The notes: generated by a model not told the origin, from the sequence alone. Positions 10,746 through 33,295 are shown, numbered from the stretch's first letter. The stretch is 64,000 bases of DNA from an uncultured Lentisphaerales bacterium (GCA_943788985.1 CALSSJ010000002.1:81001-145000); one strand, 5' to 3'. Translations and numbers: made by a program.

Positions 10746-10909
10746 TGCGTCCCCTCGAGGGCTGAAAATACAGCCGGTGGATAAAACCGCATGATACACA
10801 CCTGCGCCACACACTCCATGCTGATTCGTCGCCGGCGGTTGCAATCCAATGCAGGCCGAGCTATGGTGCTATCATAGTTTGCAGGAAGAGCCACCTCAGA
10901 GGAAGGATC

Positions 10910-11206: not shown

Positions 11207-11208
11207 TT

Positions 11209-11544: not shown

Positions 11545-11638
11545 CTGTGTGGTGTTCACCGCTGTACTAAATCAACGGTTCGTCTCATGTCATGCTGCAG
11601 GCTGTAACTGAAGGTAGCTTGGCCGTGTGGCGGTGCGT

Positions 11639-12364
11639 CTATTTGGCGGGCGGTGTTTCGCCAGAATCCGCCGGCAGGCCTGCGTTGTAAGACGGCAGCG
11701 CCCTCAGGCCACGGGACCAGTGCGTGTTCACCAGCAGTTGGATTTCCGGACCAAGCGAACTCTGTGCCTTCGCCAGTATGGCATCGGACTCTTCCAACTC
11801 GCCTCGATGGAAGTGGATGCAGGCCTGCATGAAATCGAAGGGACCAGAAAAGGTGCCGCCAAGCTTGGCGTATCCTTCATCGATGACCTTCTGCGCCTCA
11901 TCATAGCGATGGAGGCACATCAGAGCTGCGGAGAGATTCGTATACGCCTCAATGCGCTCCGGGGCAATTTTCTTGAAATGCGTAAAGAAATTGACCGCTT
12001 CGTGGTAGCGATGATCGACGAAGGCCAGCTGCCCCACTGCCTGCATCGGACCGGGGCGGACTTCCCAAAGCAGGACATTGCGAAACAATTCCTCCGCCTC
12101 AAGCACGTTTCCAGCCCGCCACTCACCGTAGGCGCGATCTGTCAGACCCTTAACGAGGGTCCCTACATTCATCTCGATGACCGGGGGCGGCATTTCGAGC
12201 TGGGCCTCGAACTCTGCCGGGTTGATGGACATCGTCGGGCGCGGGCCATAGGAAACCGCAGCATAGACATTCGTGCGGGGGGCCCCAATCGCGATTAACA
12301 CCGTGATTGTGACTGTGACTGCCAGCGAAATGCTGAGAATCAAAACGCTGCGGTGGGTGTTCAA
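11639..12364 (-). CDS. Membrane-anchored TPR protein
   Basis: N-terminal TM segment; TPR-like EAYTNLSAALMCLHRYDEA. Confidence 0.7.
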   Translation of the reverse strand: MNTHRSVLILSISLAVTVTITVLIAIGAPRTNVYAAVSYGPRPTMSINPAEFEAQLEMPPPVIEMNVGTLVKGLTDRAYGEWRAGNVLEAEELFRNVLLWEVRPGPMQAVGQLAFVDHRYHEAVNFFTHFKKIAPERIEAYTNLSAALMCLHRYDEAQKVIDEGYAKLGGTFSGPFDFMQACIHFHRGELEESDAILAKAQSSLGPEIQLLVNTHWSRGLRALPSYNAGLPADSGETPPAK

Positions 12365-16916: not shown

Positions 16917-17011
16917 TGATGCTTTCGCGGGTGAGGCACTTCACCGGCTCGCGCGTTGCATCGCAGCTGCGGCCGTCTATATACCGTGAATCGCTGAACC
17001 CGGAGTATTCC

Positions 17012-19699
17012 ATGTACCGCATTCCCTCTGTACTGCTGATCCTGCTGTCCGTCTTCGCGCACAGCGGAGAACAGGAAGACCAGTTCCATTTTGCCGAAGG
17101 CCTGTTTATCCAGCAGGACTACGCCTCCGCGATCGAGGAGTATCGTGTCTACCTGCAAGACTTTCCAACCGGAGAGGCAGCGGCCACCTGCGCGTTTAGA
17201 ATCGGCGAATGCCAGCTCAGGACCGGGGTCCACGAGCAGGCGATCACCGCCTATGAGGCTGCTATCTCGAAGCATGCAAAGGCCGACGGAATTTCCCTCG
17301 CCTGGTACAACCTAGCTCGTTCGCGCTTGGCGCTGAAGAAGTACGCGCCAGCGGCCCAGGCATTCGGCACGGCCGCAGGCCTCGGCGATGCCCGCATCCG
17401 CCCAGAAGCCCTCATTGCCCAAGGCGAATGCCTGCTGCAACTCGAGAAGTTTGCGGAGTCCGCAACCCTCTACGAGACCTTTGTCGCGGAGTTCGCAACC
17501 CACAGCGGACTTGCTGGCGTGCAGTTTTCGCTCGGCTGGTGCTACCAACGGTTGCAACACCCCCAAAAAGCGATTGCCGTGTTGGAAGCCATGCTGAAGA
17601 CCGCGCCTGAAGCGCCGGATGCCCGCCGTGCTCGCTTGGCCCTGTCTGAAGCGTACACCGAGCTGGCGCAGTTCGACAAGGCCGCAGGCGCACTCGAAGG
17701 CGTCGAAGATGCGGACGGCGCTGCCACGCTGCGCCGCGCTTGGATGGAATTCCAAGCAGGCAATAAGGCGGCCTCCTGCGACCTGTTTGTCGCCTACCTG
17801 AGCAAGCATCCGGCCGGGGCCGAGCATCTCTCGGCCCGCTACAATGCTGGTGTGGCAGCCTACGAAGCGCGGCAGTTCGAGCGCGGCCTCACAATTCTCG
17901 GCGAGCTAGCCGCCCAAGCACCCGACAGCAAGGAAGCCGCCGATGCGTCCCTATGGCGTGGACTCTGCGCGTACGAATTGCAGCGCTTTCCGCAGGCGCT
18001 GGCGTGGTTGGAGCCGCTCACGCAAAAGGACGGAGTGGAGCAGCGAGAGAGCCTGTGGTACAGCTATGGCGAGTCGCTTGCGGGCACCAAGCGCCACGCC
18101 GAGGCCATCACCGCTTTCGACCAACTACTTGCGAAGTTCGCAACTGGCAAGTATGCCGCCAACGCTGCCTACTCGCGCGCTTTGTCGCTGGAAGAAAATG
18201 GCCAGGGGAACGAAGCGGTGGCTGCCCTCAAAGCTCTGCTGGAGACATCGCTTCCCGGCGAGCTGCGAAACAAAGCACTCTTTGCCACCAGCGAGTTTCT
18301 GTACCGCCAAGACCGCGCAGCGGATGCCATCAACTACTTGTTGGAATTAGCCCGGGCGGATCAGCCAGACCCGCAGACTCTGTATCGGCTGGGCTGGGCC
18401 GCATTTAAGACGGACCGGTTTCCGCTTTCGGGCGAGCACTTCTCGACCTTGGCCGCCGGCGACGGCGAGTTTGCCAGCGAAAGTTCCTTCATGCTTGGCC
18501 GTATCGCCGAGTCTACCGGCCGCACCGAGGAAGCCGTCGCTGCCTATCAACGCCTGATGAAGCGCAGCGGGGAGGACCCGTTTATCGAGCGCGCCTGGCG
18601 GCGTCTGGCTTACGTCTACAGCGGCGACGCGCTCACCCAGCATCAGACCGCGTACCAAGCGCAGTTCCCGAGCGGGAAGTATGGCGCTGAGCTGGCACTG
18701 CGCCTTGCTGAGGATGCCTTTTCTCTGGGCCAGGTCGATGCGGCACGAGCGGCCTTTACGGAGCTGTTGCCAAGCTTAAAAGACCCCGCCTTACGGCACG
18801 CTGCAGAATACGGCTTGGCCTGGTGCCTCCTGCAACAGGAGCAGCTAGAGGCCGCAGCTGCGATGTTCGCAGAACTCGCCGTGCTCAAGGGCAGTGAATG
18901 GCGACTGGATAGCCTGCTGCAGTGTGGCGAAATTTCCTTTAAGCAGGGCGACCATGTTACAGCGCTCGCTGCTTTTCGTGAGGTTGCCGGTGCCTCCACG
19001 CCGGAATCTGAACGTGCGCAGTACATGACAGGCTGGGTCCAGCGCGAACGCGGCGAACATGCAGCCGCGGCTAAGGCTTTTCGCGCCGTGCCAGAGCGTT
19101 TCCCAAACGGAGTCCTGCGCATCGAAGCAATGGTGCGCGCTGCGGAGGCGTACCTGGCCGCAGATCAGGCGCAGGCTGGCGCCGACCTGCTGCTGAGCAT
19201 TGCGGGGGGCGAGCGCGACGAGAGCGTCTGGCATGCCTTGGATGACTGCTTCGTGGCACTCGCGCGCTGGCAGGACGTGATCGAGCACAGCGCCCTGCTG
19301 CTGGAGGCCTATCCAGACTCGAAGCAAGCCTACCTGGCCTACTTCCGCCGGGGGCTGGCGCGGAAGGCGCTGGGTATCCACGCCGAAGCGATCGCGGACT
19401 TCAAGGCTACGATCGCCCACACCGACACTCGCCCGGCGGCTCAAGCACAGTTCAACATCGGCTCTGTGTTGCTGGCGCAAGGACAGCCAGACCGCGCCGC
19501 CAGGCAGTTCCTACGGGTCGAGATGCTCTTCGACTATCCCGATCTGTCGCCGCGGGCCTTGTATCACGCGGTCGATGCCTTTGTCCAGGCTGGCCCGGAT
19601 CACGCCAAGCGTGCCACGCTCTACGCGGCCAAGCTACGCGAGAAGTATCCAGACTCAGAGTGGGTGCCCAAGCTTGACGCATTGCAGGTGGCAAAGTGA
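17012..19699 (+). CDS. Large exported TPR protein (CpoB/BamD-like repeats)
   Basis: Signal peptide from ATG 17012 (GGAG RBS); about 895 aa of TPR repeats; stop overlaps the exbB start. Confidence 0.85.
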   Translation: MYRIPSVLLILLSVFAHSGEQEDQFHFAEGLFIQQDYASAIEEYRVYLQDFPTGEAAATCAFRIGECQLRTGVHEQAITAYEAAISKHAKADGISLAWYNLARSRLALKKYAPAAQAFGTAAGLGDARIRPEALIAQGECLLQLEKFAESATLYETFVAEFATHSGLAGVQFSLGWCYQRLQHPQKAIAVLEAMLKTAPEAPDARRARLALSEAYTELAQFDKAAGALEGVEDADGAATLRRAWMEFQAGNKAASCDLFVAYLSKHPAGAEHLSARYNAGVAAYEARQFERGLTILGELAAQAPDSKEAADASLWRGLCAYELQRFPQALAWLEPLTQKDGVEQRESLWYSYGESLAGTKRHAEAITAFDQLLAKFATGKYAANAAYSRALSLEENGQGNEAVAALKALLETSLPGELRNKALFATSEFLYRQDRAADAINYLLELARADQPDPQTLYRLGWAAFKTDRFPLSGEHFSTLAAGDGEFASESSFMLGRIAESTGRTEEAVAAYQRLMKRSGEDPFIERAWRRLAYVYSGDALTQHQTAYQAQFPSGKYGAELALRLAEDAFSLGQVDAARAAFTELLPSLKDPALRHAAEYGLAWCLLQQEQLEAAAAMFAELAVLKGSEWRLDSLLQCGEISFKQGDHVTALAAFREVAGASTPESERAQYMTGWVQRERGEHAAAAKAFRAVPERFPNGVLRIEAMVRAAEAYLAADQAQAGADLLLSIAGGERDESVWHALDDCFVALARWQDVIEHSALLLEAYPDSKQAYLAYFRRGLARKALGIHAEAIADFKATIAHTDTRPAAQAQFNIGSVLLAQGQPDRAARQFLRVEMLFDYPDLSPRALYHAVDAFVQAGPDHAKRATLYAAKLREKYPDSEWVPKLDALQVAK

Positions 19700-20391
19700 T
19701 GCGCTGGCTGTTGACTACGCTGGCGATCTCCGCATTCCACCTGAGTGCCGCAGAGGGCGGTCCCCTGGGCAATGAGATGTGGGAGACGCTGGAACGTGGC
19801 GGCGAGGTGATGTACGCCATTCTGGCGGCTTCGGTGATTGGTATCGCCTTTGTCCTAGAGAGCCTGTTTCGCACCCGGCGCGGGCGTATTCTGCCGCGCT
19901 TTGCCGAGAACCAACTGCATACGCAGCGGGCCGCTGCGGTGAGTGAGGTCATGGCCCGAGCTGCGAAGACCTGTGTCGGCGAGATTCTCGCAGCAGCCAT
20001 ACAGTGGGAAGCGGGCACGCCCGAGCAACGCCGCCAGGCCATCGAGGAAGCGGTAGAAAACCACCTGTGGAAACTGCGGCGAGGGGTGCGCCCAATTGGG
20101 GTGATTGCCAACGTGACGCCGCTTCTCGGGCTGCTGGGGACGGTTGTCGGCATTATCGAAGCATTTGATACCGTGTCTCAGCAGGGAGCGCTGGGCGATC
20201 CTGCAGCGTTGGCTGGCGGGATTTCTAAAGCACTGCTCACTACCTGCTTTGGCCTGATCGTGGCCATTCCGCTGCTGCTATCGTATCACTACCTTACCGG
20301 CCGCCTGGACGCCAGGCTACATCGCTGCGAGGAGTTGGTCAAAGAAGCCCTGCTGCTGCCGACCGCACCGGCGCCCGACGCGGACGCCTGA
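19696..20391 (+). CDS. exbB: MotA/TolQ/ExbB proton-channel protein
   Basis: TPLLGLLGTVVGII and GISKALLTTCFGLIVAIP motifs. Confidence 0.92.
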   Translation: MMRWLLTTLAISAFHLSAAEGGPLGNEMWETLERGGEVMYAILAASVIGIAFVLESLFRTRRGRILPRFAENQLHTQRAAAVSEVMARAAKTCVGEILAAAIQWEAGTPEQRRQAIEEAVENHLWKLRRGVRPIGVIANVTPLLGLLGTVVGIIEAFDTVSQQGALGDPAALAGGISKALLTTCFGLIVAIPLLLSYHYLTGRLDARLHRCEELVKEALLLPTAPAPDADA

Positions 20392-20392
20392 G

Positions 20393-20812
20393 ATGGCACG
20401 CCGGTGGCAAGAGAGCGAGCAGTTTGAGGTGCCCCAGACCCCGCTGATTGATATTATCTTCATCCTCATCGTCTTCTTCCTCGTCGCCACCACCTTTTAC
20501 ACGGAAGAGCGCGACATGAAGGTCGAGCTGCCCGAGGGCACCCAGGGCTCTGCCATCGCCAAAGATCAGGAGCGGCTGGTGATAAACATTCGCGCCGGTG
20601 GAATCATTGTCATAAATCAGGACGTGCTCAGCCTGCAACTTCTCGAGGACCAGCTGCGTAGTTGGGTCAAAAGCCATGGCAATCGCGATGTCGAGATCCG
20701 CGGCGATGCCAACGCGAAACATGGCCGAATCATGGAGGTGATGAACCTTTGCAAGAAGACTGGCGTCGAGAAGTACAGCGTCACACAACGCATCGTCCAG
20801 GAACGCGAGTAG
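20393..20812 (+). CDS. exbD: ExbD/TolR family protein
   Basis: TPLIDIIFILIVFFLV with the conserved Asp; IRGD motif. Confidence 0.92.
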   Translation: MARRWQESEQFEVPQTPLIDIIFILIVFFLVATTFYTEERDMKVELPEGTQGSAIAKDQERLVINIRAGGIIVINQDVLSLQLLEDQLRSWVKSHGNRDVEIRGDANAKHGRIMEVMNLCKKTGVEKYSVTQRIVQERE

Positions 20813-20906
20813 CCGCCTCGCGCCATAGCGGGTAGCCTGACATTGTAAAGCCCTTCGCGAACAGCTAGATTAGAGACCAGATCAACGACGGATGTAGAGA
20901 GCTGAA

Positions 20907-22355
20907 ATGGCAAAGAAGATTGAGCGAAAACAACTGAAGCACATCGAGAAGCGCCTCAAAGAGCTGTACGATCGAGGTGTCAAGGCGTTAGTTCAGAAGA
21001 ATTACGGCTATGCCATCGACATGTTTCGGACCGTCTTGTACGATGAGCCGGGCCTGCTTGAAGTTCGCCAGAAGCTCCGGGAAGCCCAGCTGGGGCGTGT
21101 CGGGAATAAGCCCAGCATGGCTCGCGCAGTCCTTGCGTTCTTCGTCACACTGCCCGCTCGGGCTAAAGCTAAAGTAGCGATTAGGGCTGGGAATTTCAGC
21201 AAGGCGCTGGATCAAGCCGAGGTCGTGATGACTGGTGACCCCACATCACCCAGTGCAGCCCTGTTTATGGCTGGCATTGCCGCCGATGCCAATGTGTGGG
21301 ATGTCGCTATCAACGCGCTCGACTGCGCCTTGGCTCATCACCTGCAAAGCATTCCGCTGTTACACCGCCTGGCGAACGCCTATGTGAAAGGCGACGAGGC
21401 CTTGAAAGGGCTGGAGTGCATGAACCGCATCTGTGGCATCAAGCCTACGGACAAGTTTATGGCGGAAAGAAAAGAAATGACCGCTCTGGCCGCGATGAAG
21501 CAAGGAGGATGGGCCGCTGCCGAGCAGGGCAAGGCCGATTACAAAGACATCATCCGCGACAAGGACCAAGCCGTCAAGCAGGAACAGGAGGGCTCTACCT
21601 TTCGCACAAGCGCGGACATGGAGATGCAGATCAAGAGCCTGCAACAACTGGTGGATGGGCGAGATTCCGGCGCAAATCGTCAGAAGCTGGCAGAGGCGTA
21701 CCGCCAGGCAGGCCGCGACGAAGAGGCCATTGTCGAGTACGAGAAGGCGCTGGAGATGCTCGATGGGTTCGACCCAGGCTTGTACAACCACGTCACCGAA
21801 TGCAAAGGCAAGGTCATCGACAAGGAAATTACGAGCTGGAAAGAAGCCTTGGCCAACGAAGTGGCAACCGAAGCGGAAGCCATCGAGAATATCAAGGCTT
21901 GGGAAGACGAACGGCTGACCATCATGCTGGACCGCTGGGGCGAGCTGGTCAAACGGCTGCCGAGTGAAGTCAAGGGCCGCGATACGCTCGCGCACTATCA
22001 ATTCGAGGCAGGAGAGTACGACCTCGCCCTCGCAAACTTCCAGATGGTGAAGAAAAATCCGGCATTACGCCAGCAGGCCAGTCTCACGATTGGGCGCTGC
22101 CTCTCGTTCCAAGGCAAGCACGATCTGGCCATTGTCGAGCTGGAGGGCGCCTTAGAAGGAATGCACAACATGGACGGCATCAAGAAGAGCACGTTGTACC
22201 AGCTCGCCGAAGAGTACAAGGTCAGGGGCGATCAGGAAAAGGCAGACAGCTACTTCAAAGAAGTCTATTCAGCCGACATCGGGTTTCGTGATGTCTCCGA
22301 GATCGTCGAAAAGATCTACTCTCGCGAGAGCAGCGGCAAAGAAGAAGTTGACTAA
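20907..22355 (+). CDS. Cytoplasmic TPR protein
   Basis: Multiple TPR-like helices, C-terminal DIGFRDV. Confidence 0.75.
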   Translation: MAKKIERKQLKHIEKRLKELYDRGVKALVQKNYGYAIDMFRTVLYDEPGLLEVRQKLREAQLGRVGNKPSMARAVLAFFVTLPARAKAKVAIRAGNFSKALDQAEVVMTGDPTSPSAALFMAGIAADANVWDVAINALDCALAHHLQSIPLLHRLANAYVKGDEALKGLECMNRICGIKPTDKFMAERKEMTALAAMKQGGWAAAEQGKADYKDIIRDKDQAVKQEQEGSTFRTSADMEMQIKSLQQLVDGRDSGANRQKLAEAYRQAGRDEEAIVEYEKALEMLDGFDPGLYNHVTECKGKVIDKEITSWKEALANEVATEAEAIENIKAWEDERLTIMLDRWGELVKRLPSEVKGRDTLAHYQFEAGEYDLALANFQMVKKNPALRQQASLTIGRCLSFQGKHDLAIVELEGALEGMHNMDGIKKSTLYQLAEEYKVRGDQEKADSYFKEVYSADIGFRDVSEIVEKIYSRESSGKEEVD

Positions 22356-22385
22356 TTGGAGACTGACCCGTGCGGGGGCCAGCCC

Positions 22386-23399
22386 ATGGACACCCTAACG
22401 GACACACTTTGCCGGCCATTGCGCGACCTCCGTGTTTCACTGATCGATGCCTGCAATCTGCGCTGTCGCTATTGCATGCCCACCGAACAATTCAGCCCCG
22501 ACCACCGCTTTCTGCGACCGGCTGAACGTCTCTCAGACGAAGAAGTGCTGCGCTTCATCCGTATTTTTGTGGAATGTGGAGTTAGCAAAATCAGACTGAC
22601 CGGTGGCGAACCGCTGCTGCGCCCGGGCGTCGCCCAGCTCATTGGCCGCATTCGCGAGATTCCCGGGATTACGGACATCGCACTGACCACTAACGGCGTG
22701 CACCTTGCTAAGTTCGCAGCGGCGCTGCGCGAGGCTGGCGTGGATCGCCTGACGATCAGCCTGGATGCGGTTAACCGGGCCACGCTAGCCCGGCTAGCCG
22801 GGCGAGCAGTGGACCCAAAGGCCATTCTGGACGGTGCAATTGCGGCCCGCGACGTGGGCTTCCAGCAAACCAAGATCAATATGGTGGCCATGCGCGGCTG
22901 GAATGAAGATCACATCCTACCGCTGGCCGAGCTAGGACGTGAACACGACTTCATCGTGCGTTTCATTGAGTACATGGACGTGGGCACCATGAATCAGTGG
23001 CAGCGGGAGGACGTCATCCCCGCGCGCGAGATTCATGACCTGATTCACGAGCGATATCCACTCGAGCCCGCAGACCCGCTCTACCGGGGCGAAGTGGCCC
23101 GGCGCTACCGCTATCTGGATGGCGGCGGCGAGATTGGGCTGATCTCATCTGTGACCGAGCCCTTCTGCCATGAATGCAGCCGCGCCAGAATCAGCGCTGA
23201 CGGCTTCCTGTTTACCTGCCTGTTCGGCACCTCTGGGCTTGATCTGCGCACGTTGATGCTGGCCGGGGCCGATGATAGCGAACTCCGCAAAACAGTAGAG
23301 TCGCACTGGCAGGCACGGACCGATCGCTATTCAGCAGACCGCCTGCAGTTGAAGGGCCAGACCACCGGCAAGGTGGAGATGTACCATATCGGCGGTTGA
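22386..23399 (+). CDS. moaA: GTP 3',8-cyclase (molybdopterin biosynthesis)
   Basis: CNLRCRYC radical-SAM motif, LTGGEPLLR, FCHECSRAR, C-terminal IGG. Confidence 0.96.
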   Translation: MDTLTDTLCRPLRDLRVSLIDACNLRCRYCMPTEQFSPDHRFLRPAERLSDEEVLRFIRIFVECGVSKIRLTGGEPLLRPGVAQLIGRIREIPGITDIALTTNGVHLAKFAAALREAGVDRLTISLDAVNRATLARLAGRAVDPKAILDGAIAARDVGFQQTKINMVAMRGWNEDHILPLAELGREHDFIVRFIEYMDVGTMNQWQREDVIPAREIHDLIHERYPLEPADPLYRGEVARRYRYLDGGGEIGLISSVTEPFCHECSRARISADGFLFTCLFGTSGLDLRTLMLAGADDSELRKTVESHWQARTDRYSADRLQLKGQTTGKVEMYHIGG

Positions 23400-23414
23400 A
23401 AGTTACGAAACACG

Positions 23415-23443
23415 TTGACAGACCCCTGCCATGTGTTTATCAT
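23415..23443 (+). promoter_or_regulatory. Sigma-70 promoter of tRNA-Leu
   Basis: TTGACA-N17-TATCAT followed by a GC-rich discriminator. Confidence 0.8.
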
Positions 23444-23469
23444 ACCCGGCCTGCAGTCGCAGATCGAGT

Positions 23470-23558
23470 ACCAGAGTGGCGGAACTGGCAGACGCGCTAG
23501 GTTCAGGTCCTAGTTCCCGTAACCGGGAGTGGGGGTTCGAATCCCCCCTCTGGTACCA
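23470..23558 (+). tRNA. tRNA-Leu (anticodon CAG)
   Basis: Acceptor stem ACCAGAG/CTCTGGT plus ACCA; anticodon arm CTAGG-TTCAGGT-CCTAG; long variable arm; T arm GGGGG-TTCGAAT-CCCCC. Confidence 0.96.
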
Positions 23559-23579
23559 CCCCTTTTTTTAGCGGGATGT

Positions 23580-24645
23580 GGTATCAAGTTTCGCTTTCAT
23601 CGATAGTCGATTGGTGAAGAAGAGATCGCCGAAGTGTGCGATAGCATTCGCAGCGGCTGGCTGACCTCCGGCCCTAAAGTCCGCGCCTTCGAACAAGCAT
23701 TCGCAAACTACGTAGGTGCTAACTTCCCAGTTGCGGTCAACTCTTGTGCTGCAGCCATGCATCTGGCGCTTGAAGCCCACGGGATTGGTCCCAAAGATGC
23801 GGTGGTCACCTCCGACTACACCTTCACCGCCTCGGCCGAAGTGATTCGCTATCTCGGTGCCACCCCGGTGTTCGTCGATATCAACCCGGTGATGCTCACT
23901 CTTTCCCCCGCGGCCCTGGCCCGCGCCCTGGCCGAGAATCCCCGTATTCGCGCGGTGATCCCCGTTCATACCGCCGGCCATCCCTGTGACATGGCTGGCT
24001 TGCGAGAAGCGATTGCGGGCCGGGATGTGGTCCTCATCGAAGACGCCGCACATTCCCTGCCCAGCGAGCTCTCAGGCCAACGCATCGGCGCGGCCAGCGA
24101 TGGCTGCTGTTTCAGCTTCTACGTCACCAAGACGCTCTGTACCGAGGAAGGCAGTATGCTGACCACGGATTCTGTGGAGATCGCAGCCCGCGCCCGCACG
24201 ATGCGCTTGCATGGGATCGATGCGGATGTCTTCGCCTGGGAGGACAGCGAACGACCGCTCCGGTACTACGAGGTGGTCGCTCCGGACTTTAAATACAACA
24301 TGACCGATCTGGCGGCCGCGATCGGTCTGCACCAGCTGCGGCGTCAGGACGAGTTTTGCGAACTGCGCAGCAGGACCGCCGCGCGGTATGACAGCTTGCT
24401 TGCTAACTGCCCCGTTACCCCTCCCCACGGTAAGCACTGGCTGCAAGCACGCGTGGCACCTGTACATCTTGCAGCTCCAGCTGGAGCACCTAACTTGCGA
24501 TCGCGATGAGATCAGTCGTCGTCTCGGCGCCGCCGGGGTGGCCCACAGCGAGCATTTCATTCCCTTGCACCGTCAGCCATACTGGCGTGTCCGCTCTGCG
24601 CTCACGCCCGCGCACTTTCCGGTCTCGGAGCAAGCCTTTCAGTAG
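23580..24645 (+). pseudogene. DegT/DnrJ/EryC1/StrS aminotransferase pseudogene
   Basis: SIGEEEIAEV..SGWLTSGP, IEDAAH and FSFYVTK motifs; in-frame TAG at 23604, frameshift near 24420, truncated C-terminus. Confidence 0.88.
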
Positions 24646-24679
24646 CCGAGGTTTTGCGGATTTCGCAAAAACGCGCCTG

Positions 24680-24882
24680 ATGCAACGCGCCTTTGATCTG
24701 CTGACTTCCGGATGCCCGCTGCTGCTGATTTGGCCGCTGCTGGCTCTGCTGGCGCTTTGGGTTCGGCTGGATTTAACCGGGCCAGTGTCGTTCGTGCAGG
24801 AGCGCGTGGGCCGAAATGGTGAGCTATTCAAAATTTTGAAGTTTCGGACCATGCAGACCGATGCCGAACAGAGTGGCCCTAC
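24680..24882 (+). pseudogene. Bacterial sugar transferase (WcaJ/WbaP C-terminal type) 5' remnant
   Basis: MQRAFDLL...GPVSFVQERVGRNGELFKILKFRTM, after which similarity stops. Confidence 0.8.
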
Positions 24883-24989
24883 AGGCGCAATACGTTGCCG
24901 AGCGCACGATCTGGCAAGATTGTGTCGTGATCCTCCGGACGCTGGTGCTGATTGTGCGGAGTTCGCAAACCCCGTCTTCGTGATCGCTG

Positions 24990-26372
24990 TCAGCCGGCGA
25001 GGGTTTGGATGATGGTCTCGCGGACAGTCGCTTCCTTGGCGTCGATCACTCGGCAGCGGGTCTTGGCTCCCTTCAGCTGATCAAGAATCGGGTGGGTGGC
25101 CGGTGCGTCGGGATTGGCGCGGGCGATTGCATCGGGGAACTTGGCGGGATGCGCTGTTGCCAGGCAGAGGCTCGGGCCGGAACCGGCGAGTTGCTGCGCG
25201 GCGGCGACGCCGACTGCGGTGTGTGGATCGAGCACATAGCCATGATTCTGGTAGCAGGCGGCGATGGTGGCAAGCGTCTGCTCAGTGTTGATGGCGGCCG
25301 CTTGAAAGCCGCTGTCGACACCGTCGGGGCCAAAGGGCACGGACAGGGATGCGGAGTTCGCAAACTCGTCCATGAGCGCGCACACCTTGGTGGCGTCGCT
25401 GCCACAGTGATAGAATAAATAGCGCTCGAAATTACTGGCGACCTGGATATCCATCGAGGGGCTGAGCGTGGGGGCGACCGTGCCGCGTGAGTAGGTGCCG
25501 GTGGTGAAGAAGCGGCTGAGGATGTCATTCTCGTTGGTGGCGACGATCAGGCTAGAGATCGGCGCGCCCATCCGTCGGGCGATGTAGCCAGCGAAGATGT
25601 CACCGAAGTTACCGGTGGGGACGGAGACAGTCACGGACTCCCCGCCTTCGCGTTCAAGGACGCGATAGCAACCGTAGAAATAATAGACGACTTGGGCGAG
25701 GACGCGGGCCCAGTTTACGGAGTTGATGGCTCCCAGTTGATAGTCGCGCTTGAAATCGAGGTCGCGAAATAGCGACTTCATGATGCTCTGGCCATCGTCG
25801 AAGGTGCCGCGGATGGCGAGGTTGTGAACATTCTCATCGAGCACGGAGGTCATCTGCAGCTCTTGCAGCGGACTGACGCGCTGGTGTGGATGCATGATGA
25901 AGATCTCGATGTTCTGGCGGCCACGCAGGCCTTGAATGGCCGCACTGCCGGTATCGCCGCTGGTCGCGCCGAGCACGGTCAACTTCTCGTTGCGTTCGCT
26001 CAGGATGTACTCAAAGACGGGCCCGAGAAACTGCAGGGCGATGTCTTTGAAGGCGAGGGTAGGGCCGTGGAATAGTTCGAGGATGTTGGTGCGGCCGAGC
26101 GGCACGACCGGGGCAACTTCGTCATGGCGAAAAGAGGAGTAGGCACTATTCACCAGCTGCATCAGGTCGCGAGATGGGATGTCATCGATAAAGAGGCTGA
26201 AGACTTCGTGAGCCAGTGCCGGATAGGCGAGGCTGCGCCACTCGGCCAGTCGGTTCCGCACGTCCGGGATTGTCTCCGGAAGAAGTAGGCCGCCGTCGGT
26301 GGCTAGCCCCATCATCACTGCGTCCTTAAAGGAAACGGGCGCGGTCTGGCCCCGTGTACTGATGTATCTCAT
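24990..26372 (-). CDS. thrC: Threonine synthase
   Basis: MRYISTRG, ELFHGPTLAFKD, ATSGDTG, NSVNWAR, VPTGNFG and TAHPAKF motifs. Confidence 0.96.
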   Translation of the reverse strand: MRYISTRGQTAPVSFKDAVMMGLATDGGLLLPETIPDVRNRLAEWRSLAYPALAHEVFSLFIDDIPSRDLMQLVNSAYSSFRHDEVAPVVPLGRTNILELFHGPTLAFKDIALQFLGPVFEYILSERNEKLTVLGATSGDTGSAAIQGLRGRQNIEIFIMHPHQRVSPLQELQMTSVLDENVHNLAIRGTFDDGQSIMKSLFRDLDFKRDYQLGAINSVNWARVLAQVVYYFYGCYRVLEREGGESVTVSVPTGNFGDIFAGYIARRMGAPISSLIVATNENDILSRFFTTGTYSRGTVAPTLSPSMDIQVASNFERYLFYHCGSDATKVCALMDEFANSASLSVPFGPDGVDSGFQAAAINTEQTLATIAACYQNHGYVLDPHTAVGVAAAQQLAGSGPSLCLATAHPAKFPDAIARANPDAPATHPILDQLKGAKTRCRVIDAKEATVRETIIQTLAG

Positions 26373-26521
26373 GGCAAAAACTTGAACTGAGGGCCTGGTG
26401 CGTAAAACAAGAACCGTACGTCGATGCGAACAGTCGGCAACGACTGGTGTCAACGTTGAGTGATCGGCCCTCAAGCGCGCAGGCAAGTATCACTGTCCCT
26501 TGCCCCTGCCCCCAGGCAAGG

Positions 26522-26619
26522 TTGACTCTTGACTTTCGACTCTTGACTCTTGGGCTGACTGGCTGACTCGCTGACTGTCGCTGGGTCAAAGAGTCATCTC
26601 GTCAAGAGTCAAGAGTCAG
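26522..26619. repeat. Inverted array of heptamer repeats (TTGACTC)n ... (GAGTCAA)n
   Basis: Read directly in the divergent thrC-iscA intergenic region. Confidence 0.8.
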
Positions 26620-26736
26620 GCCGCTGCCAGAGAGCCGATCGGAGCTGAGCGATTTGCCTGTTATCGGGACGCGGGTATCGTACTAGGCTCGACTACGCAT
26701 TATATTATCTGCGATCCGAATTTCCAAGGTGCAACG

Positions 26737-27072
26737 ATGTCCAGCACAACCCCAGCAATCACAATAACCGAAAATGCCCGCCAGCGCCTGCTGGATGCTG
26801 GGCTACAGGAAGGCGGTTACCTGCGTATTAAAGTAATTTCTGGAGGCTGTTCCGGCCATACCTTCGACGCCACGATTGAAGCCGAGATGAGTGATGGCGA
26901 TGTAATTGTGCTCGATCATGACAACTTGCGCATCATCACTGATCCAAAAAGTTCGCTATTCATCAATGGCCTCGATATCGACTACTCGAACGATCTGATT
27001 CAGGCCGGGTTTCGGCTGACGAATGGGAACGCGAGTGAGTCCTGTGGCTGCGGTGCAAGCTTTGCAATGTAA
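26737..27072 (+). CDS. HesB/IscA/ErpA A-type Fe-S carrier
   Basis: GGCSG and CGCGASF motifs. Confidence 0.93.
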   Translation: MSSTTPAITITENARQRLLDAGLQEGGYLRIKVISGGCSGHTFDATIEAEMSDGDVIVLDHDNLRIITDPKSSLFINGLDIDYSNDLIQAGFRLTNGNASESCGCGASFAM

Positions 27073-27084
27073 CGAAGGTGCCTA

Positions 27085-27294
27085 ATGGCTGTTGAACCTG
27101 TATCTATTCTCGGCGGCAAGTCCGTCTACTGTATTAACGAAGGCCAACTCAAGGATGCCTGCGCGCTGGCCCAGGAAGGCGAGGCTGGCGAGCGCATCCA
27201 AGCGGAGCTGGCCCGGATTGGTGAAAACCTGAGCCGCAACGAGCAGGCCGCGTTGGCGTTTATGATCATTGAAAACCTGCGAAACTCCGCCTGA
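27085..27294 (+). CDS. Small hypothetical protein in the Fe-S operon
   Basis: AAGG RBS; stop overlaps the next ATG (TGATG). Confidence 0.65.
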   Translation: MAVEPVSILGGKSVYCINEGQLKDACALAQEGEAGERIQAELARIGENLSRNEQAALAFMIIENLRNSA

Positions 27295-27857
27295 TGAGTA
27301 CGCCACCACTTGAGATCAATCTCGAGATTACGCCGAATCCCAATGCGCTGAAGTACGCGCTGAATCGTCGGATTCTATTGACTGGGGCTGAGTACTACGC
27401 GACTGAGGCTGAGGCCGAGGAGTATTCGCCGCTGGCAGCCCGGCTGTTCCATCTTGGCGATATTCAGGCTGTGATGCTTGGTGGGGACTTCGTCTCGGTC
27501 ACGATTGCCGGGATGGACCGGGTGCGCGAATTAAATGAAGAGATTATCGCCAACATCCGCGCCCACATTGAGGGCGGTGGTGAGATCTGCTCGCCGCGTG
27601 ATGAGGCCGACCTAGCCGCGAACGAATCCGAGGATTCGGCGCTGGTGCGCAAGATCATCAACGAGGAAGTGCGTCCGGCTGTGGCGATGGACGGTGGCGA
27701 TATCGTGTTCTACCGGCTAGACGAAGATGTGGTTTACGTGCACATGCACGGGGCCTGCGCCGGTTGCCCAAGCTCGACGATGACGTTGAAGGCTGGGATT
27801 CTCAATCGCCTGCAGCAGGATATCCCCACGATTCGGGACGTTGAGCCGATCGCCTGA
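27294..27857 (+). CDS. NifU/Nfu family Fe-S scaffold
   Basis: TPNPNALKY N-domain; VRPAVAMDGGD...GACAGCPSS. Confidence 0.93.
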   Translation: MSTPPLEINLEITPNPNALKYALNRRILLTGAEYYATEAEAEEYSPLAARLFHLGDIQAVMLGGDFVSVTIAGMDRVRELNEEIIANIRAHIEGGGEICSPRDEADLAANESEDSALVRKIINEEVRPAVAMDGGDIVFYRLDEDVVYVHMHGACAGCPSSTMTLKAGILNRLQQDIPTIRDVEPIA

Positions 27858-27870
27858 CAGCCTGCCGCGC

Positions 27871-27977
27871 GAAGAGGGAATAGGTAAAATATTAAGGGGG
27901 TAAAAAATTGGGAGGGGGATCACGCCAGCCTTTTGTCTTCATTTTTTACCCTTAAATATTTTACCTATTCCTTCTTC
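27871..27977. repeat. AT-rich imperfect inverted repeat (about 37-bp arms) between convergent genes
   Basis: Left arm GAAGAGGGAATAGGTAAAATATTAAGGGGGTAAAAAAT; reverse complement of right arm GAAGAAGGAATAGGTAAAATATTTAAGGGTAAAAAAT. Confidence 0.85.
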
Positions 27978-27984
27978 TCCGTGC

Positions 27985-30900
27985 TTAGCGCTGGCCTAGC
28001 CTGAGCGGCTCAATCGTGATTGTAGCCGACCGATCCTGCGGATAGAACAGCAAAAACAGTCGCTCGGCCGTGCGTGTTCCGTCAATCGATGCGGTGAATT
28101 GCCAGGCCGTTACGGCTGATTTGAGCCGTAGCGTGCGCAGGTCAAACACCAGCTCATTTCGTCCAGGCCGCACAAAGAGTGGCTCGCTCTCCAGGTATTC
28201 ATCGCCAAACTGGAAGGCCATGGCCAGGCGACTGCCACTGGCCATCTGCGCTTGCAGCGGGACGATCCAGGTCTGGCCCGGGTGTACCTCGGTGTCGGTC
28301 TGCGCCGCCATCACGATCTTTTCCGATGCGCCCGCCGTCTGCTCCAGAGCGAAGCGAAACCTGACGCCGCCGTCCCGCTGCTCGACAAGCTCACTGGGCA
28401 GAATATCCGTCCACCCTTCCGGCAAGGCCCACTCAGTCACCGCGAGCTCCTCCGTGGCGACTTCCTGCGCCCGTTTCAAGTGATCCTGGCGTTCTTGTGC
28501 CAGGTCTCGCCCGCGCAGCCCCAGCGTCTCGGTCGCGCCGTGCGCCAGAAAACTGGTCACGATATTGATGCCCATCTGCACCGACCCTTCCTGCATTTCC
28601 CGGGGCGATAGGTCCGTCAACGACGGCATCAGCGGATGCGTCCTCGGGTCGATTTCAAGCCCGTCTCCGTAGTCATTGCGGGTGTAGACCACGCGCCAGC
28701 GGCCATCCAGTTGCACGCCCTCTAGATAGTCGAGGCGGTACTTATCTCCCGGCGGGACCCGATATCCCAGGAAGCCCGTGCTCAGATCGTACGGCGCCGC
28801 GAAGAGTGGCGCAGTCAGCGGAATTTTGGCCAGCCGCTTTCCCGGCAACACCTGTGCGAGCGCCTCGCGGACTGCGCCGTCGAATGCTTCGCTGTCCAGT
28901 GCCGACGAATCGTTGATCCACAGGCATCCGCCTTGGGCGAGATACTCGGCCAGCCGGGTGACCTCCGTTGCGGACATCGCAAATGGGTCGTGCCCCGACA
29001 TAAACAAGAACGGGGCCTCGGTGAGTTCCTGATCATCCGTGCGGATCGCCCGGCTTCCGTAGGGCAGCAGACTGCCCAACCGTTGCTCAAACTGATGAGC
29101 CAGATGCAGCATTGCCGTGGCGTCGCAGTCCCAATCGCCGCCATACTCCAGAACCGGCAGCGTGCGTTGCCACTGGCTCGAGATCGCGTGCTGCGCATCT
29201 GCTCCCGCAGTGCCGCCTGGCCGCACCAGCGCCGCAGCCGCGGAGAGGGCAGTGCTCGCTGCCGGAATCGTCACTGCGCCCACTGGGGCGTCATCAATGA
29301 TCATGCGTCGTCTGCCCACCAGCTCTGGCCCGGGCCTTGTAACTTCGGCGGTGCGCTTGGCCGTGGGCGCTGCAGCCTGGCTGGCGAGGGCCGCCAAGTC
29401 GATGGCTTCACGTGTGGCGGCGCTGCGGAGTGAGCCGCTGGCACTGATGGGTGCCCGCGCCGGTGCGAACTCCGCAACTTCTTGTCCAGGACTGGCTGAC
29501 TGGCGCGAGGCGCGCTCGCCCGCCAGTGCTTGCCCCATCGCTTGGGCGGTGCGCTTGGCCGTGGGCGCTGCAGGATCGCTGGCGACGGCCGCCACCGCGA
29601 CCGCTTCGCGTTCGGCGTGGGCACTGCGGAGCGTGCCGCTGCCACTGATGGGCGCGCGTGCCGGTGCGAACTCCGCAACTTCCTGTCCTGGGCTGGCTGA
29701 CTGGCGTGAGGCACGCTCGCCCGCCAGTGCTTGCCCCATCGCTTGGGAGGTGCGCTTGGCCGTGGGCGCTGCTGCCTGGCTGGCGACGGCGGCCACATCG
29801 ACGGCTTCACGTGTGGTGGCTGCGCTGCGGAGCGTGCCGATGACGCCAATCGGCGCGCGCGCTGGTGCGAACTCCGCAACTCCTTGTCCAGAGCTGGCTG
29901 ACTGGCGTGAGGCGCGCTCGCCCGCCAGTGCTTGCCCCATCGCTCGGGCGTTGCGCCTGGCGGTGGGGGCCTCAGCCTGGCTGGCTACCGCGGCGACATC
30001 GACGGCTTCACGTGTGGTAGCTGCGCTGCGGAGCGTGGCGATGGCACTGACGGGGGACCGCGCCGGTGCGAACTCCGCAACTCCTTGTCCAGAGCTGGCT
30101 GACTGACGTGAGGCACGCTCGCCCGCTAGTGCTTGCCCCATCGCCTGGGCGGTGTGCTTGGCTACGGGCGCGGCAGTCCTCGCTGGCGACGGCCGCCACA
30201 GCGACCGCCTCGCGTGCGGCGTGGGCACTACGGAGTGTGCCGCTGGCGCCAATGGGGGACCGTGCCGGTGCGAACTCCGCAACTTCCTGTCCCGGGCTGG
30301 CGGACTGGCGTGAGGCGCGCTCGCCTGCCAGCGCCTGGACGGCCCCTTCAGTCGCCTGGCGACGCCCGGTCTCGGCCGCGGCTTCGCGGACGTCCTGCGG
30401 TTGCTCGTGCGCGCGGCCGACGGTTCCGATTGCGATCTCCGCAACTGCTGCGGAGTTCGCAGTCGCCCGTTCCGGGCCAAGCGCCTGCTCGGCGCTGTGG
30501 GCAGTTGCCTCGCGGGCCAGCTTGCCGCCCTCGGGGGCTGCGCGCTCGCTGCTTTCGGCATGACGCAGCGCAACGCTGGCGGTGCTCTCTGCCGGAGCGA
30601 CCTGCGCTGCCGGACGGCTCAGCTCTGGCACTCGAACTTGCGGCTCGGCCACGGTCGCCAGCGGCGTTGGGGTTGCCTCGAGAGACTGGCTCTCGTCCAT
30701 CATTTCTTCCGCGCGCTCCCGTGCTTCGGCCGCCGTGGGTTGCTGCTCCGCCAGCGCCTTGTGCACCGGCGCCGCGGTCGCGGCCTCGGTCGATTGGTCT
30801 GCTGGTTCCACCGGCTCGTGGGCCAATTCAGGGGCGATCGCCTCTGGCTGCTCGTCCGTTTCCTGCTGCGCTTGTTCTGGCTCGGCTGGCGCGGATTCAT

Positions 30901-33295
30901 CGACCACTTCGCGCTCCACCGGCTGCGGGGCCTCGGGCTCTGCGACCGCCGCACTCTCGGTGGTTGCGATCTCGGCACTCACCTCCTGCTCGACGATCTC
31001 TTCGCCGGCGGTGACCGTCATGATGGTCACGATTTCCTCGGTCGGCTCTTCGCGGGGCGAGGATTTAGGCAGCACGACAAACAGGAGTAATGCATGCACT
31101 GCCACGGAGGCCAGCACGAAGCGCGCGCGTTCATTGCCGCGAACCGCATGGATTAGCAGCGCGAGCAGGGCCAGAACGATCAGCAGCCAGGCCAGCCACC
31201 AGAGTACGTTCCAGCCGCTGTCTGCGGCCTTGGCCTCCGCCAGCGGCGGCGCGGCTACGCGTGTTTGCCGCGAGACCTCGACCGAGAGCGGAACACGCAC
31301 TGGCATCAGTCCATCTGCCTGGGCGACAATCTCGGTCGCCAGCTGTTCGCTCGGCAACGGGCGTTCCAAGCGCCAGACAAACGGCGTGGTCTGCCAATCT
31401 GCTGTTGTGGCTAGGCTGGCGGTCTCGAACTCCAGGCCTGCGGCCGGAGAGCGAAGCGACGCCGCGGCGGCTCCCTCCGGATCTAGTCGCAGCTCGGCGA
31501 TGCCCGCGACCCGCACTTCGTGTTCGCCCTCGGCCACTGTGACCGCACTTAGCCGCAGCAGAAGTTGCGGAGTTCGCACTTCGCCGTGAAACGGAACCTG
31601 CCAGGATTTTCCCGCGAAGTTGATCGATACCGTCCCTTCAAATGGCCCGGCCTCGGTCTGCTCGGTGGCGGCAATGAGGGAGAGCCGGCTCGTGGCAGTG
31701 CCCGCCAGATCGCCCTCCGCGCGCACCGTCACGTGCGGCGGGGGCTGGATGGAGAGCGTGGCCGCGTCGCCTGCGCTACCTCCGTACAACTGAATCTCGA
31801 GGTCTGCCTTTTGTGGCACGCCCGCGTAAAGCGGGGCGAAGGTGACCACCTTGGGCTCGGCCAGCATGCTCGCTTCCAAACCGGCTGCGGTGGCATCGAG
31901 CGCCAGCTTTGCCGGCGCAATGTCGCCAGCGACCGCTCGCTCGGCCAGCCGGGCCGGGCGGAAACTGCGGGCTCTGGGCCCGCCGCTCGCTGCTGCCGGC
32001 CCTGTTACGACCGGGCGCACTGCACCTTGCAGCGAGATTAGATCGGTTCGCACCAGCGGTTGGTCGTCCAAGGCTGCTTTTGCGGAGAGCGCAAACCGCT
32101 GCATACGGGCCTGCTGCGTGGGCGAGAAGCGCATCAGGCCAGGGACGGGCGTAGGGAGTGGGGGCAACGTGGAGTCGTGGGATAGTGCCGTCGCCACGAT
32201 GGTGGCCGTGCCGTCGAAATCACCGCGCAGCCAGGCGCAGAAGCCATCGGCCAGCGTGACCACCCGCAGCGTGATATCGGTGGAGGCAATGAGTTCGTAG
32301 GTTGGGGCCTCGCCCAGCCCTGGTGAGAGCGTGTTGCGGCCGCGTTGAAATGTGGTGAGATTCTCAGCACCATTGAGTCGCGGGGCACCGCCGCTGACCT
32401 GCAGCAGCGGCTGGCGCATACTGTCGTCGAGCCACAGTTCCGTCTCTGCCGCGAGGAAGCCGCGTGCTGCGACTTGGCGGCGATCGATGCGATGAAAAAC
32501 ATCCCGAAACAGCGCGGGCAAGGCGTCGGCATCGGGTGCCTGCACATGCATGCCGCCGGTCTTTTTCGCAATCCGGGCCATCAGCGATTGGTCGACTTCT
32601 GCGCTTAGGCCGATGGTGAATACCGGGGTCTCGCGCAGGCTCTCGTGGGCCTCGCGGTAGGCGCGATGGGGGCGCCCGTCTGAGAACAGCAGAATTGCCC
32701 GGCGGTTGCCGGTTTCCAGGCCGTCGAGCATGCGCGCTGCCGCGGCAAGCGGCAGGTCGAAGTCGGTCGAGCCGCGTGGGCGGAGCGCCCGCACCATGCT
32801 CGCGACATCTGGGCAGTCCTGCGGCGCTACCGGCACTTGGATGACTTCTGGCTCATCGCGAAAGCTCACCACCCCGACGTGCTGGATCCGGCGGCTCTGC
32901 CGCGCCAGGTCCAGGAACTCCTGCAGCGCCCGCAGTCTTGCGTTGTCGGGGTCGTGCTTGCGCATGCTGTGTGAGCTGTCGATGAGAGCGACCAAGTCAT
33001 AGCGTTCTTTGCGAAACTCGTGCTCTGCTGTTATTGGCACGGATTTCCCGGCGGCCAGCAGCGAGACTGGGAAGGTCCCAGATTTGCGGAGTTCGCAACG
33101 CGCTACGATCAAGCGGCGGCCGTTACGCTCGCTCAGGATCGCTGCTGGAAAGCGTTGAGGCAGCTCAGAGCCGACGATCAACTCGCCAGCCTCGAGGGCG
33201 GCCACGGCGGCGGGTGCCTGGGCTTCGAACCAGAAGGTTTCGCTGGCTGAGACCGTGGCCACTAACAGTACGGTAAGGAGAATGCGCATATTCAT
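27985..33295 (-). CDS. Giant vWA / 2 TM / Ala-rich repeat / DUF4159 protein, split by a 1-nt insertion near 30177
   Basis: ORF 30008-33295: signal peptide, MIDAS LIDSSHSM, GSTDF, LFSDG, TM pair. ORF 27985-30573: LEYGGDWD, PFLFMSGH, YLAQGGCLWINDS, QMGINIV (DUF4159-like). The same repeat continues across the two frames. Confidence 0.75.
29350..30345 (-). repeat. Intragenic tandem repeat, about 5 copies of 201 bp (67 aa)
   Basis: Anchor GTGCGAACTCCGCAA at 29463, 29664, 29865, 30066 and 30268 (periods 201, 201, 201, 202). Confidence 0.92.

Follow-up and report, generated by a model that had tools for sequence, protein, structure and literature searches.

A giant DUF4159 protein as the probable partner of a TPR-ExbB-ExbD motor, encoded in a split copy of a conserved Ton/Tol-like module of PVC bacteria

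Introduction

The Ton and Tol systems are the two textbook routes by which the energy of the inner membrane reaches the outer envelope of Gram-negative bacteria. A stretch of 64,000 nucleotides from an uncultured Lentisphaerales bacterium (GCA_943788985.1 CALSSJ010000002.1:81001-145000; hereafter the window, with positions counted from its first nucleotide) carries an operon for a motor of this type, in which a gene for a tetratricopeptide repeat (TPR) protein is followed by exbB and exbD. The operon contains neither tonB nor tolA. A giant gene coding for a protein with von Willebrand factor A (vWA) and DUF4159 domains lies on the opposite strand, with its 3' end 7.2 kb from the end of exbD. 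What, then, does this motor drive? The original prediction, made from the sequence of the window, named the giant protein as the energy transducer of the orphan motor. We find that the genes for the TPR protein, ExbB, ExbD and the giant DUF4159 protein make up a conserved Ton/Tol-like module of the Planctomycetes-Verrucomicrobia-Chlamydiae (PVC) bacteria, that the window holds this four-gene module as a split copy, and that the giant gene has moved 7 kb away and been inverted in the genome of the window. The giant protein is probably the cognate, physically coupled partner of the TPR-ExbB-ExbD motor.

Results

Gene order was compared at related loci, which were found using two DUF4159 peptide patterns drawn from the alignment of giant proteins. 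Since the seeds were purely DUF4159 patterns, the search was unable to favour motor genes. It recovered 52 loci, all in metagenome-assembled genomes (MAGs) and all outside the window's own genome. Their labels are Lentisphaer-/Victivallales (23), Planctomycet-/Brocadiia (16), Kiritimatiellia (5), Verrucomicrobi- (4), Akkermansia (3) and unclassified (1). At 29 loci at least 600 bp are available upstream of the 5' end of the giant gene, and these are referred to as informative; the other 23, where the contig ends in or just before the gene, were set aside. At 22 of the 29 informative loci the giant gene is directly preceded by the gene for ExbD in the same orientation, with small gaps or overlaps, and 20 of these 22 also contain ExbB. 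ExbB is missing beside ExbD at L003, where the contig ends, and at L006, where ilvD is found in its place. At a further locus (L046) the giant gene is accompanied by TPR and ExbB genes. The linked loci are drawn from all four groups, Lentisphaerota, Kiritimatiellota, Verrucomicrobiota and Planctomycetota, and include giant proteins with identities down to 30-33%.

The same association emerges from the neighbours of the window genes. We searched 32 neighbour proteins of the window against all open reading frames (ORFs) of the loci with phmmer. The TPR protein was matched at 15 of the 52 loci, ExbB at 22 and ExbD at 23, with one ExbD/TolR-like ORF in each of these 23; the other matches were to a beta-lactamase-fold protein (four loci), a DUF1559 protein (two loci) and a transposase-like ORF (one locus). 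In the linked loci the relatives of the window TPR protein have E-values of 3e-181 to 7e-154. The ExbB and ExbD proteins of five loci (L001, L004, L009, L011 and L027) are 52-58% and 52-61% identical to those of the window. These five loci hold the closest relatives of the window's TPR protein, ExbB and ExbD, and also the giant proteins most similar to that of the window. All-against-all clustering of the ORFs left TPR, ExbB and ExbD as the sole families conserved around the giant gene. The 10-kb flanks of the 52 loci contain no conserved family resembling TonB, TolA, TolB or Pal. The order TPR-exbB-exbD-giant in related loci identifies the arrangement in the window as a split copy of the conserved four-gene module.

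Two observations were made on individual loci. L002 contains a second, distant ExbB/ExbD pair (10626-11781, minus strand; E-values of 2e-12 and 1e-8 to the window proteins), a different paralog from the linked clade, whose position is 8 kb downstream of the giant gene and in the opposite orientation. Three Akkermansia-labelled contigs (L023, L024 and L026) carry the module, and their proteins are near those of the Lentisphaerales/Victivallales loci L022, L031 and L032; the labels may be wrong.

The giant protein carries the docking signature of known transducers in a transmembrane (TM) hairpin. All features of the giant gene lie on the minus strand. TM1 (approximately residues 695-718; 31142-31213) runs from outside to inside and is followed by a basic cytoplasmic loop, RGNERAR (31121-31141; family consensus R-G-N-R-R-A or P-R-M-A-K), and by TM2 (residues 726-742, FVLASVAVHALLLFVVL; 31070-31120), which contains Ser730-x3-His734 (codons 31106-31108 and 31094-31096). 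Running a hidden Markov model of the hairpin over the collected proteins and the locus ORFs, we obtained 117 distinct hairpins. The serine position is occupied by Ser in 109 of them, Ala in seven and Thr in one; the histidine position is His in 107 and Asn in the remaining ten, with no other replacement. The resulting combinations are S-x3-H (100/117), S-x3-N (9/117), A-x3-H (6/117), T-x3-H (1/117) and A-x3-N (1/117). In an alignment of 40 hand-picked full-length homologs (A1), S730 and H734 are each at least 90% conserved. Conservation across the family places the S-x3-H motif above chance. An aromatic residue is found four positions ahead of the serine in 113 of the 117 hairpins. Position His+7 is A, V or T and position His+11 is mostly L, neither being conserved; the window protein has V and S there.

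By a crude test, 36 of the 40 homologs have a hydrophobic, signal-like stretch at the N-terminus, and the loop between TM1 and TM2 is short and basic across the family. Together these features place the N-terminus of TM2 in the cytoplasm. The original prediction could have failed on the conservation of the motif in homologs, on the orientation of TM2 or on the co-occurrence with this ExbBD clade; all three came out in its favour, which supports the giant protein as the transducer of the orphan motor.

A block of alternating aliphatic residues, IVTIMTVT in the window (residues 755-762; 31010-31033), starts 21 residues after His734. Its variants elsewhere in the family include VTTMTV, VTVMTV, AVKVRAV, AVSLQAV and KVGLKAV, and it is aligned in all 40 sequences of A1 and in all 32 sequences of the hairpin alignment A6. 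In TonB and TolA the helix is followed by a strand termed the 'motor box' (PMC12204202). The block is a candidate for the 'motor box' described in that paper. Next comes a low-complexity tether (29158-31009) in which Ala, Glu, Pro, Ser and Arg abound and which has about 640 residues in the intact protein; in the 40 homologs the tether measures 399-925 residues, with a median of 614.5. A tandem array of 4.9 copies of a 201-nucleotide (67-residue) unit lies within it (29343-30331). A complex prediction with two copies of ExbD and residues 722-800 of the giant protein gave no answer (score 0.00) and counts neither for nor against binding.

The motor genes are all on the plus strand. The ORF of the TPR protein spans 16910-19699, with a TTG at 16910 and the probable start at an ATG at 17012, from which an 895-residue protein begins with the signal-like sequence MYRIPSVLLILLSVFA. 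It was identified with Pfam, where many TPR families match it, and with NCBIfam, where it reaches 178.8 bits against the tol_pal_ybgF model (cut-off 90.1) in seven stretches. The protein is periplasmic and YbgF/CpoB-like, and its gene is the first of the module. The start of exbB (19696-20391) overlaps the TPR stop codon. It encodes an ExbB/TolQ-like proton-channel subunit of 231 residues (MotA_ExbB, E = 4e-29; 101.4 bits against PF01618, cut-off 22.9) with three TM helices and a signal-like N-terminus. The exbD gene (20393-20812) starts 2 nucleotides past the end of exbB and encodes an ExbD/TolR-like subunit of 139 residues (ExbD, E = 5.6e-28; 98 bits against PF02472, cut-off 25.4).

By NCBIfam, ExbB and ExbD are nearest to TolQ and TolR and stay under the equivalog cut-offs. 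ExbB scores 74.8 against 221 for TolQ and 58.2 against 206 for ExbB; being above the Pfam cut-off and below both of these, it is a member of the family and an equivalog of neither. Its E-value to E. coli TolQ/ExbB is just 4.5e-9. In a profile comparison with the E. coli structure (5sv0_B), S46 on TM1, the pore-lining T149 and T183, and P192 on TM3 of the clade ExbB correspond to S34, T148, T181 and P190, and all four are invariant in the 18 clade sequences. The proton-binding TM-helix aspartate D20 of ExbD is invariant in 23 sequences. None of 62 scanned window ORFs (33 + 29) matches the TonB or TolA families of Pfam at E ≤ 1e-3. The description of the motor as TonB-less thus refers to the operon and the 64-kb window. 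The coupled operon without tonB or tolA that the original prediction had described is confirmed by the coordinates and by Pfam.

The giant gene itself occupies 27985-33295 and would comprise 1769 codons if read through. In the window it is split over two overlapping frames, frame A at 30008-33295 (1095 residues) and frame B at 27985-30573 (862 residues). The components listed in the original prediction, from the signal peptide and the vWA domain through the hairpin and the 67-residue repeats to DUF4159, were all recovered where it had put them. The signal-peptide-like N-terminus (residues 1-19, MNMRILLTVLLVATVSASE) is encoded at 33239-33295 and the vWA domain (residues 100-263), with the metal-ion-dependent adhesion site (MIDAS) DSSHS at residues 106-110, at 32507-32998. 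Beyond the tether follow the DUF4159 domain with an alpha/beta fold (28555-29157; Pfam E = 2e-32, 112.8 bits against PF13709 with a cut-off of 25.9) and a C-terminal beta-sandwich of about 160 residues (27988-28464) that is similar in fold to carbohydrate-binding modules (CBMs).

The two frames arise from one extra G (GAG-G-ACT) at 30178/30179, within the first repeat copy. It stands out against the other repeat copies and against two intact database proteins, P0157 and P0007, which read ...VASETAAPVAK... at this place. P0157, from a cluster of 21 member sequences, is intact at 1769 residues and equals residues 1-1039 of frame A followed by the last 730 of frame B, with five substitutions in total; P0007 is intact at 1635 residues, with two repeat copies fewer. 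This one indel aside, the two frames are open throughout and conserved. This suggests that the break is an assembly error in the GC-rich repeat or a very recent lesion. All work on the giant protein was done with the two frames and the intact database proteins.

A promoter scan of both ends of the giant gene revealed no promoter-like site, and a terminator scan found one terminator-like site, which lies over the start codon and is probably due to chance. Inverted repeats were sought at 20.8-20.9 kb and 33.3-33.7 kb, and none was found in either region. Our guess is that a single inversion displaced the giant gene.

Two repeat features in or beside the gene deserve a description of their own. 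An AT-rich inverted repeat with arms of 36 nucleotides (27871-27906 and 27942-27977), 86% complementary and 35 nucleotides apart, sits between the giant gene and a convergent nifU-like gene, and was missed by the simple terminator scan; a terminator acting in both directions and a small repeat element are possible identities. Every 201-nucleotide unit contains a stretch of 19-20 nucleotides (29463-29482, 29664-29682, 29865-29884, 30066-30085 and 30268-30286) that matches, exactly or nearly so, the reverse complement of 31560-31579, located 1.3-2 kb upstream in the giant gene. This match is far above chance expectation.

An exhaustive HMMER search with residues 1-800 of the giant protein returned 1262 proteins at E ≤ 1e-3, of which 20 reach E ≤ 1e-30; the weaker matches cover mostly the vWA domain only. 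For a domain scan we chose 26 long homologs from 150 matches listed, and 25 of the 26 combine VWA with DUF4159. When the C-terminal 406 residues were used in a word-based search, 109 proteins were recovered. Those that bear a name are called 'DUF4159 domain-containing protein', 'hypothetical protein' or 'Mg-chelatase subunit ChlD', and by their organism labels they belong to MAGs of Verrucomicrobia, Kiritimatiellia, Planctomycetota and Brocadiia. Proteins of the family range from 1100 to 2600 residues. The MIDAS residues D106, S108, S110, T177 and D206 are invariant in the 40 full-length homologs. A shorter subfamily (P0184-P0204, approximately 1100-1300 residues) has no vWA domain, whereas the signal peptide, the S-x3-H hairpin and DUF4159 are retained together with an ectodomain rich in beta structure, which puts the vWA domain outside the invariant core. 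Two proteins labelled 'Rhodothermales bacterium' (P0159 and P0241) are close to those of the window; here too the labels may be wrong.

Structure prediction resolves the protein into two heads. The model of the C-terminal 408 residues has a mean predicted local distance difference test score (pLDDT) of 88.3 and a predicted template modelling score (pTM) of 0.85. Its DUF4159 part is nearest, among solved structures, to Hoch_4089 of Haliangium ochraceum (PDB 4i66, from structural genomics), with a Foldseek E-value of 1.6e-11, a target-normalised TM-score of 0.81 and 24% identity, and has the same fold. Hoch_4089 differs from the giant protein in being a stand-alone protein of 200 residues with no assigned function and no hairpin, tether or motor context. 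The last ~160 residues form a beta-sandwich whose best matches are CBM11, CBM4 and CBM16, with target-normalised TM-scores near 0.5. In the model, the sandwich thus resembles carbohydrate-binding modules in fold, which is no proof of sugar binding. Structures of vWA domains are absent from the top PDB matches of the C-terminal model. A search of the ESM Atlas with the same 408 residues provided no lead, an unnamed cluster being its top match with a score of 0.81, and in the literature searched DUF4159 is named solely in a Pfam database paper.

The ectodomain (residues 20-692) was modelled with a pLDDT of 82.8 and a pTM of 0.59; in the model the vWA domain comes after one beta-sandwich and ahead of others. 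Its best matches are integrin ectodomains, a vWA protein of bacteria (4fx5) and two adhesins of pilus tips, SpaC and PitA; their low TM-scores are expected for a multidomain model. The N-terminal head thus appears adhesin-like or integrin-like, with an intact MIDAS.

Discussion

The giant protein shares with TonB and TolA a TM helix whose N-terminus is inside and which carries Ser-x3-His, a candidate short strand-like segment past this helix, a long periplasmic tether rich in Pro, Glu and Ala that ends in a globular distal head, and, at related loci, a gene position directly behind exbB-exbD. The CpoB-like TPR gene in the module operon recalls the tol-pal operon. In cryo-EM structures, S16 and H20 of TonB and S18 and H22 of TolA contact a Ser and a Trp on TM1 of ExbB/TolQ, from which a contact network reaches the Pro of TM3 (PMC12215075). 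Replacement of His20 of TonB by Asn is described as fully functional in the introduction of a preprint. Within the SHLS motif, Leu and Ser are reported to be less conserved (PMC12215075), and in the giant family they are not conserved, which sets it apart from TonB and TolA.

Other differences concern architecture. Neither by Pfam nor by fold does the giant protein possess the TonB_C domain, which binds TonB boxes, or the C-terminal domain III of TolA, and unlike the TolA system its loci have no conserved tolB- or pal-like neighbours. An exported vWA ectodomain of 690 residues precedes the docking helix, unlike in TonB or TolA, and the tether of 400-925 residues departs from theirs as well.

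A mechanism can be proposed from these parts. ExbB and ExbD would form a proton-driven motor in which the TM aspartate of ExbD and the Thr ring of ExbB are kept, and the retained Ser and Pro of ExbB would link it to the transducer site. The giant protein would be exported by means of its signal peptide and anchored by the TM hairpin. TM2, running from inside to outside, would use Ser730 and His734, putative counterparts of S16/H20 in TonB and S18/H22 in TolA, for docking at the rim of the ExbB pentamer, and the strand-like block past TM2 may touch the periplasmic domain of ExbD. The action of the motor would then travel along the disordered tether of 400-900 residues to the head of DUF4159 and the CBM-like sandwich, which might grip a target in the envelope; a glycan, or some component associated with the outer membrane, is the likeliest candidate. 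Near the inner membrane, the N-terminal ectodomain with its MIDAS vWA domain could provide a second binding site, with the CpoB-like TPR protein as a periplasmic scaffold. The physiological role might be Tol-like envelope tethering, or adhesion or glycan handling. Confidence in the nature of the target is much lower than in the partnership itself. The model predicts that H734A is inactive, that H734N is active and that function depends on D20 of ExbD.

Transducers with vWA domains have precedents. Williams-Jones et al. (Mol Biol Evol 2025, PMC12204202) argued for the existence of further transducers of this kind, pointing out that some PVC bacteria, Tichowtungia among them, have no recognisable TonB and TolA, and proposed 'vWA force transducers' in PVC bacteria. 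In these proteins an N-terminal SHLS helix (with His35) is joined to a disordered linker that holds the motor box; a domain II of some 100 residues and, at the C-terminus, a YfbK-like vWA head complete them. Their genes follow a TPR gene and tolQ/tolR-like genes, including a tolR-like pair (PMC12204202). AlphaFold 3 models in that paper set the helix on the rim of the motor, and the function is given as unknown (PMC12204202). The likeness to the giant protein is considerable: both families are non-TonB/TolA proteins of PVC bacteria, have an SHLS-type helix with a conserved His, and are encoded downstream of TPR and tolQ/tolR-like genes; the linker, with the strand-like block as a candidate motor box, may be a further likeness. 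In the giant protein, unlike the published family, the vWA domain precedes the TM hairpin and the distal head is DUF4159 with a CBM-like sandwich instead of vWA; and, compared with the published tolR-like pair, a single ExbD/TolR-like ORF was found at each of the 23 giant-gene loci with an ExbD match. The words 'DUF', 'hairpin' and 'giant' do not occur in the main text of PMC12204202, its supplement not being covered by this statement. The transducer concept is therefore not wholly new, having been published in 2025 for another protein family, while the DUF4159 architecture differs.

A further analogy is to gliding motility. The Agl-Glt machinery of Myxococcus comprises a TolQR-like motor, TonB-like Glt proteins and the vWA adhesin CglB. 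As in the analogy drawn in PMC12204202, a TolQR-type motor, a vWA adhesin and TPR proteins come together in both systems. The giant protein differs in uniting the vWA domain and the motor-docking helix in a single polypeptide, and no Glt or Agl homologs were seen, in an analysis that did not search for them specifically.

Several observations weigh against a coupled partnership. In the giant protein, S-x3-H lies in the second helix of a hairpin, unlike in TonB and TolA, where an N-terminal signal anchor carries it. Sequence homology to the TonB/TolA helix is not demonstrated, since the profile of the hairpin alignment A6 (32 sequences) gave no match to PDB sequences at E ≤ 10, in a kind of search where short TM profiles are weak. 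The ExbB residue corresponding to Trp38 of E. coli is Leu or Ile in the clade (I50 in the window). A crude alternation test of the strand-like block was passed by just 19 of 32 sequences. The tether, at about 600 residues, far exceeds that of TonB and TolA and may serve some other purpose. At six of the 29 informative loci (L028, L035, L037, L045, L048 and L051), as in the window, the giant gene is apart from exbBD and has unrelated genes upstream by Pfam, and L006 has ExbD with no adjoining ExbB. The relatives are without exception from MAGs, and common descent accounts for part of the synteny among them. Lastly, the giant gene is frameshifted in the window and could be inactive.

Several of these points would fit a giant protein that is a static anchor or adhesin and shares only operon and regulation with the motor, which would then serve an unlinked TonB/TolA-like protein, the S-x3-H motif being used for packing or oligomerisation of the hairpin. 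The resemblance of the vWA/beta-sandwich ectodomain to integrin ectodomains and pilus-tip adhesins, the CBM-like C-terminus, the unlinked loci and the absence of the Trp that contacts His20 of TonB in E. coli all suit such a protein. We nevertheless regard it as unlikely. Ser-x3-His, with Asn as the sole replacement of the His, is kept across four phylum-level groups at overall identities of 22-31%, a degree of conservation that makes packing alone hard to accept. The direct adjacency of exbD and the giant gene at most informative loci also speaks against a merely shared operon, as does the lack of a conserved TonB/TolA-like family in the flanks that the motor could serve instead.

A somewhat weaker case can be made for a system that is decaying in the genome of the window, with the giant gene a pseudogene and the motor operon a remnant. 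It could explain the extra G that splits the gene, the detachment of the gene from the operon and the partial coverage of Pfam profiles by nearby DegT-like and Bac_transf-like ORFs. The intact P0157, from a 21-member cluster, differs at five residues, however, and P0007 is intact too; with both frames open and conserved but for one indel, an error in the GC-rich repeat or a very recent lesion is likelier. Moreover, an intact unlinked giant gene is kept in six other species. Decay thus seems improbable.

In MoxR/DUF58/Bat neighbourhoods, DUF4159 and vWA domains with double-TM anchors are a frequent annotation. That the giant protein belongs to a MoxR/DUF58/BatA-type vWA-DUF4159 system, partnered not with ExbBD but with an AAA+ MoxR ATPase and the DUF58 gene that exists in the window (47488-48498, by Pfam), which the original prediction had suspected of belonging to the same dispersed system, is very improbable: DUF58 homologs occur in the flanks of none of the 52 loci, no family apart from TPR, ExbB and ExbD is conserved around the giant gene in a comparison that included no MoxR-specific model, no MoxR-type ATPase was seen beside the window DUF58 gene (which RsmD-like and TrkH genes adjoin), and, unlike in MoxR/DUF58/Bat systems, the vWA domain is exported behind a signal peptide, a misfit with a cytoplasmic MoxR partner, and the conserved neighbour is ExbBD.

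As the partner of the motor, the giant family would link DUF4159, a domain of unknown function, to a proton-driven machine, and would show that the Ser-x3-His docking helix can be part of a hairpin that follows a large, adhesin-like domain outside the inner membrane. It would be a candidate envelope-tethering or glycan-handling machine for the Lentisphaerota, Kiritimatiellota and Planctomycetota, whose envelopes are poorly known. A bolder reading, which we consider possible though doubtful, is that the family represents a third, hitherto undescribed Ton/Tol transducer architecture, hairpin-anchored and two-headed, with the MIDAS vWA ectodomain at the inner membrane and the DUF4159/CBM-like head on its tether of 400-900 residues, that replaces TolA/TonB in the Lentisphaerota and Kiritimatiellota and in parts of the Verrucomicrobiota and Planctomycetota and pulls on a glycan, be it peptidoglycan or an outer-membrane polysaccharide, instead of a TonB-box or TolB-type protein. 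If true, it would give DUF4159 its first function and explain how the proton gradient is coupled to the outer envelope across the wide or variable periplasms of PVC bacteria.

Other features of the window

The position directly after exbD, held by the giant gene in related loci, is taken in the window by a gene for a second TPR protein (20907-22355, plus strand; 482 residues, without a signal peptide). We considered it as a member of the module and rejected it on finding homologs at none of the 52 related loci; it is probably outside the conserved module. On the far side of the giant gene, a DUF1559/prepilin-type gene is present at 33706 (Pfam, NCBIfam).

In the stretch 23634-25012, between the operon and the giant gene, a DegT-like ORF covers profile positions 14-271 of 360 only. 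The Bac_transf-like ORF that follows it covers positions 2-67 of 179 and runs into a convergent threonine synthase gene. Both look truncated, by indels or rearrangement. The threonine synthase is 61-66% identical to its nearest named relatives, which are in MAGs labelled Rhodothermales, Verrucomicrobiota, Lentisphaerae and Kiritimatiellales; taken together with the DUF1559/prepilin-type gene, it indicates an uncultured PVC lineage.

Further along the window, a 315-residue ORF at 43112-44059 has a weak match to IS200-like Y1 transposases (E = 1.5e-7), and a relative of it adjoins the giant gene at L035 (E = 4e-21). The ORF at 39941-41079, though bacterial, matches the mainly eukaryotic D123 family (E = 9.7e-21) and is followed by a gene for a DUF1232 membrane protein. 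Between lpxA and lpxC, a FabZ-like ORF of 311 residues (52083-53018) contains two FabA-like stretches and looks like a doubled form of the hot-dog fold.

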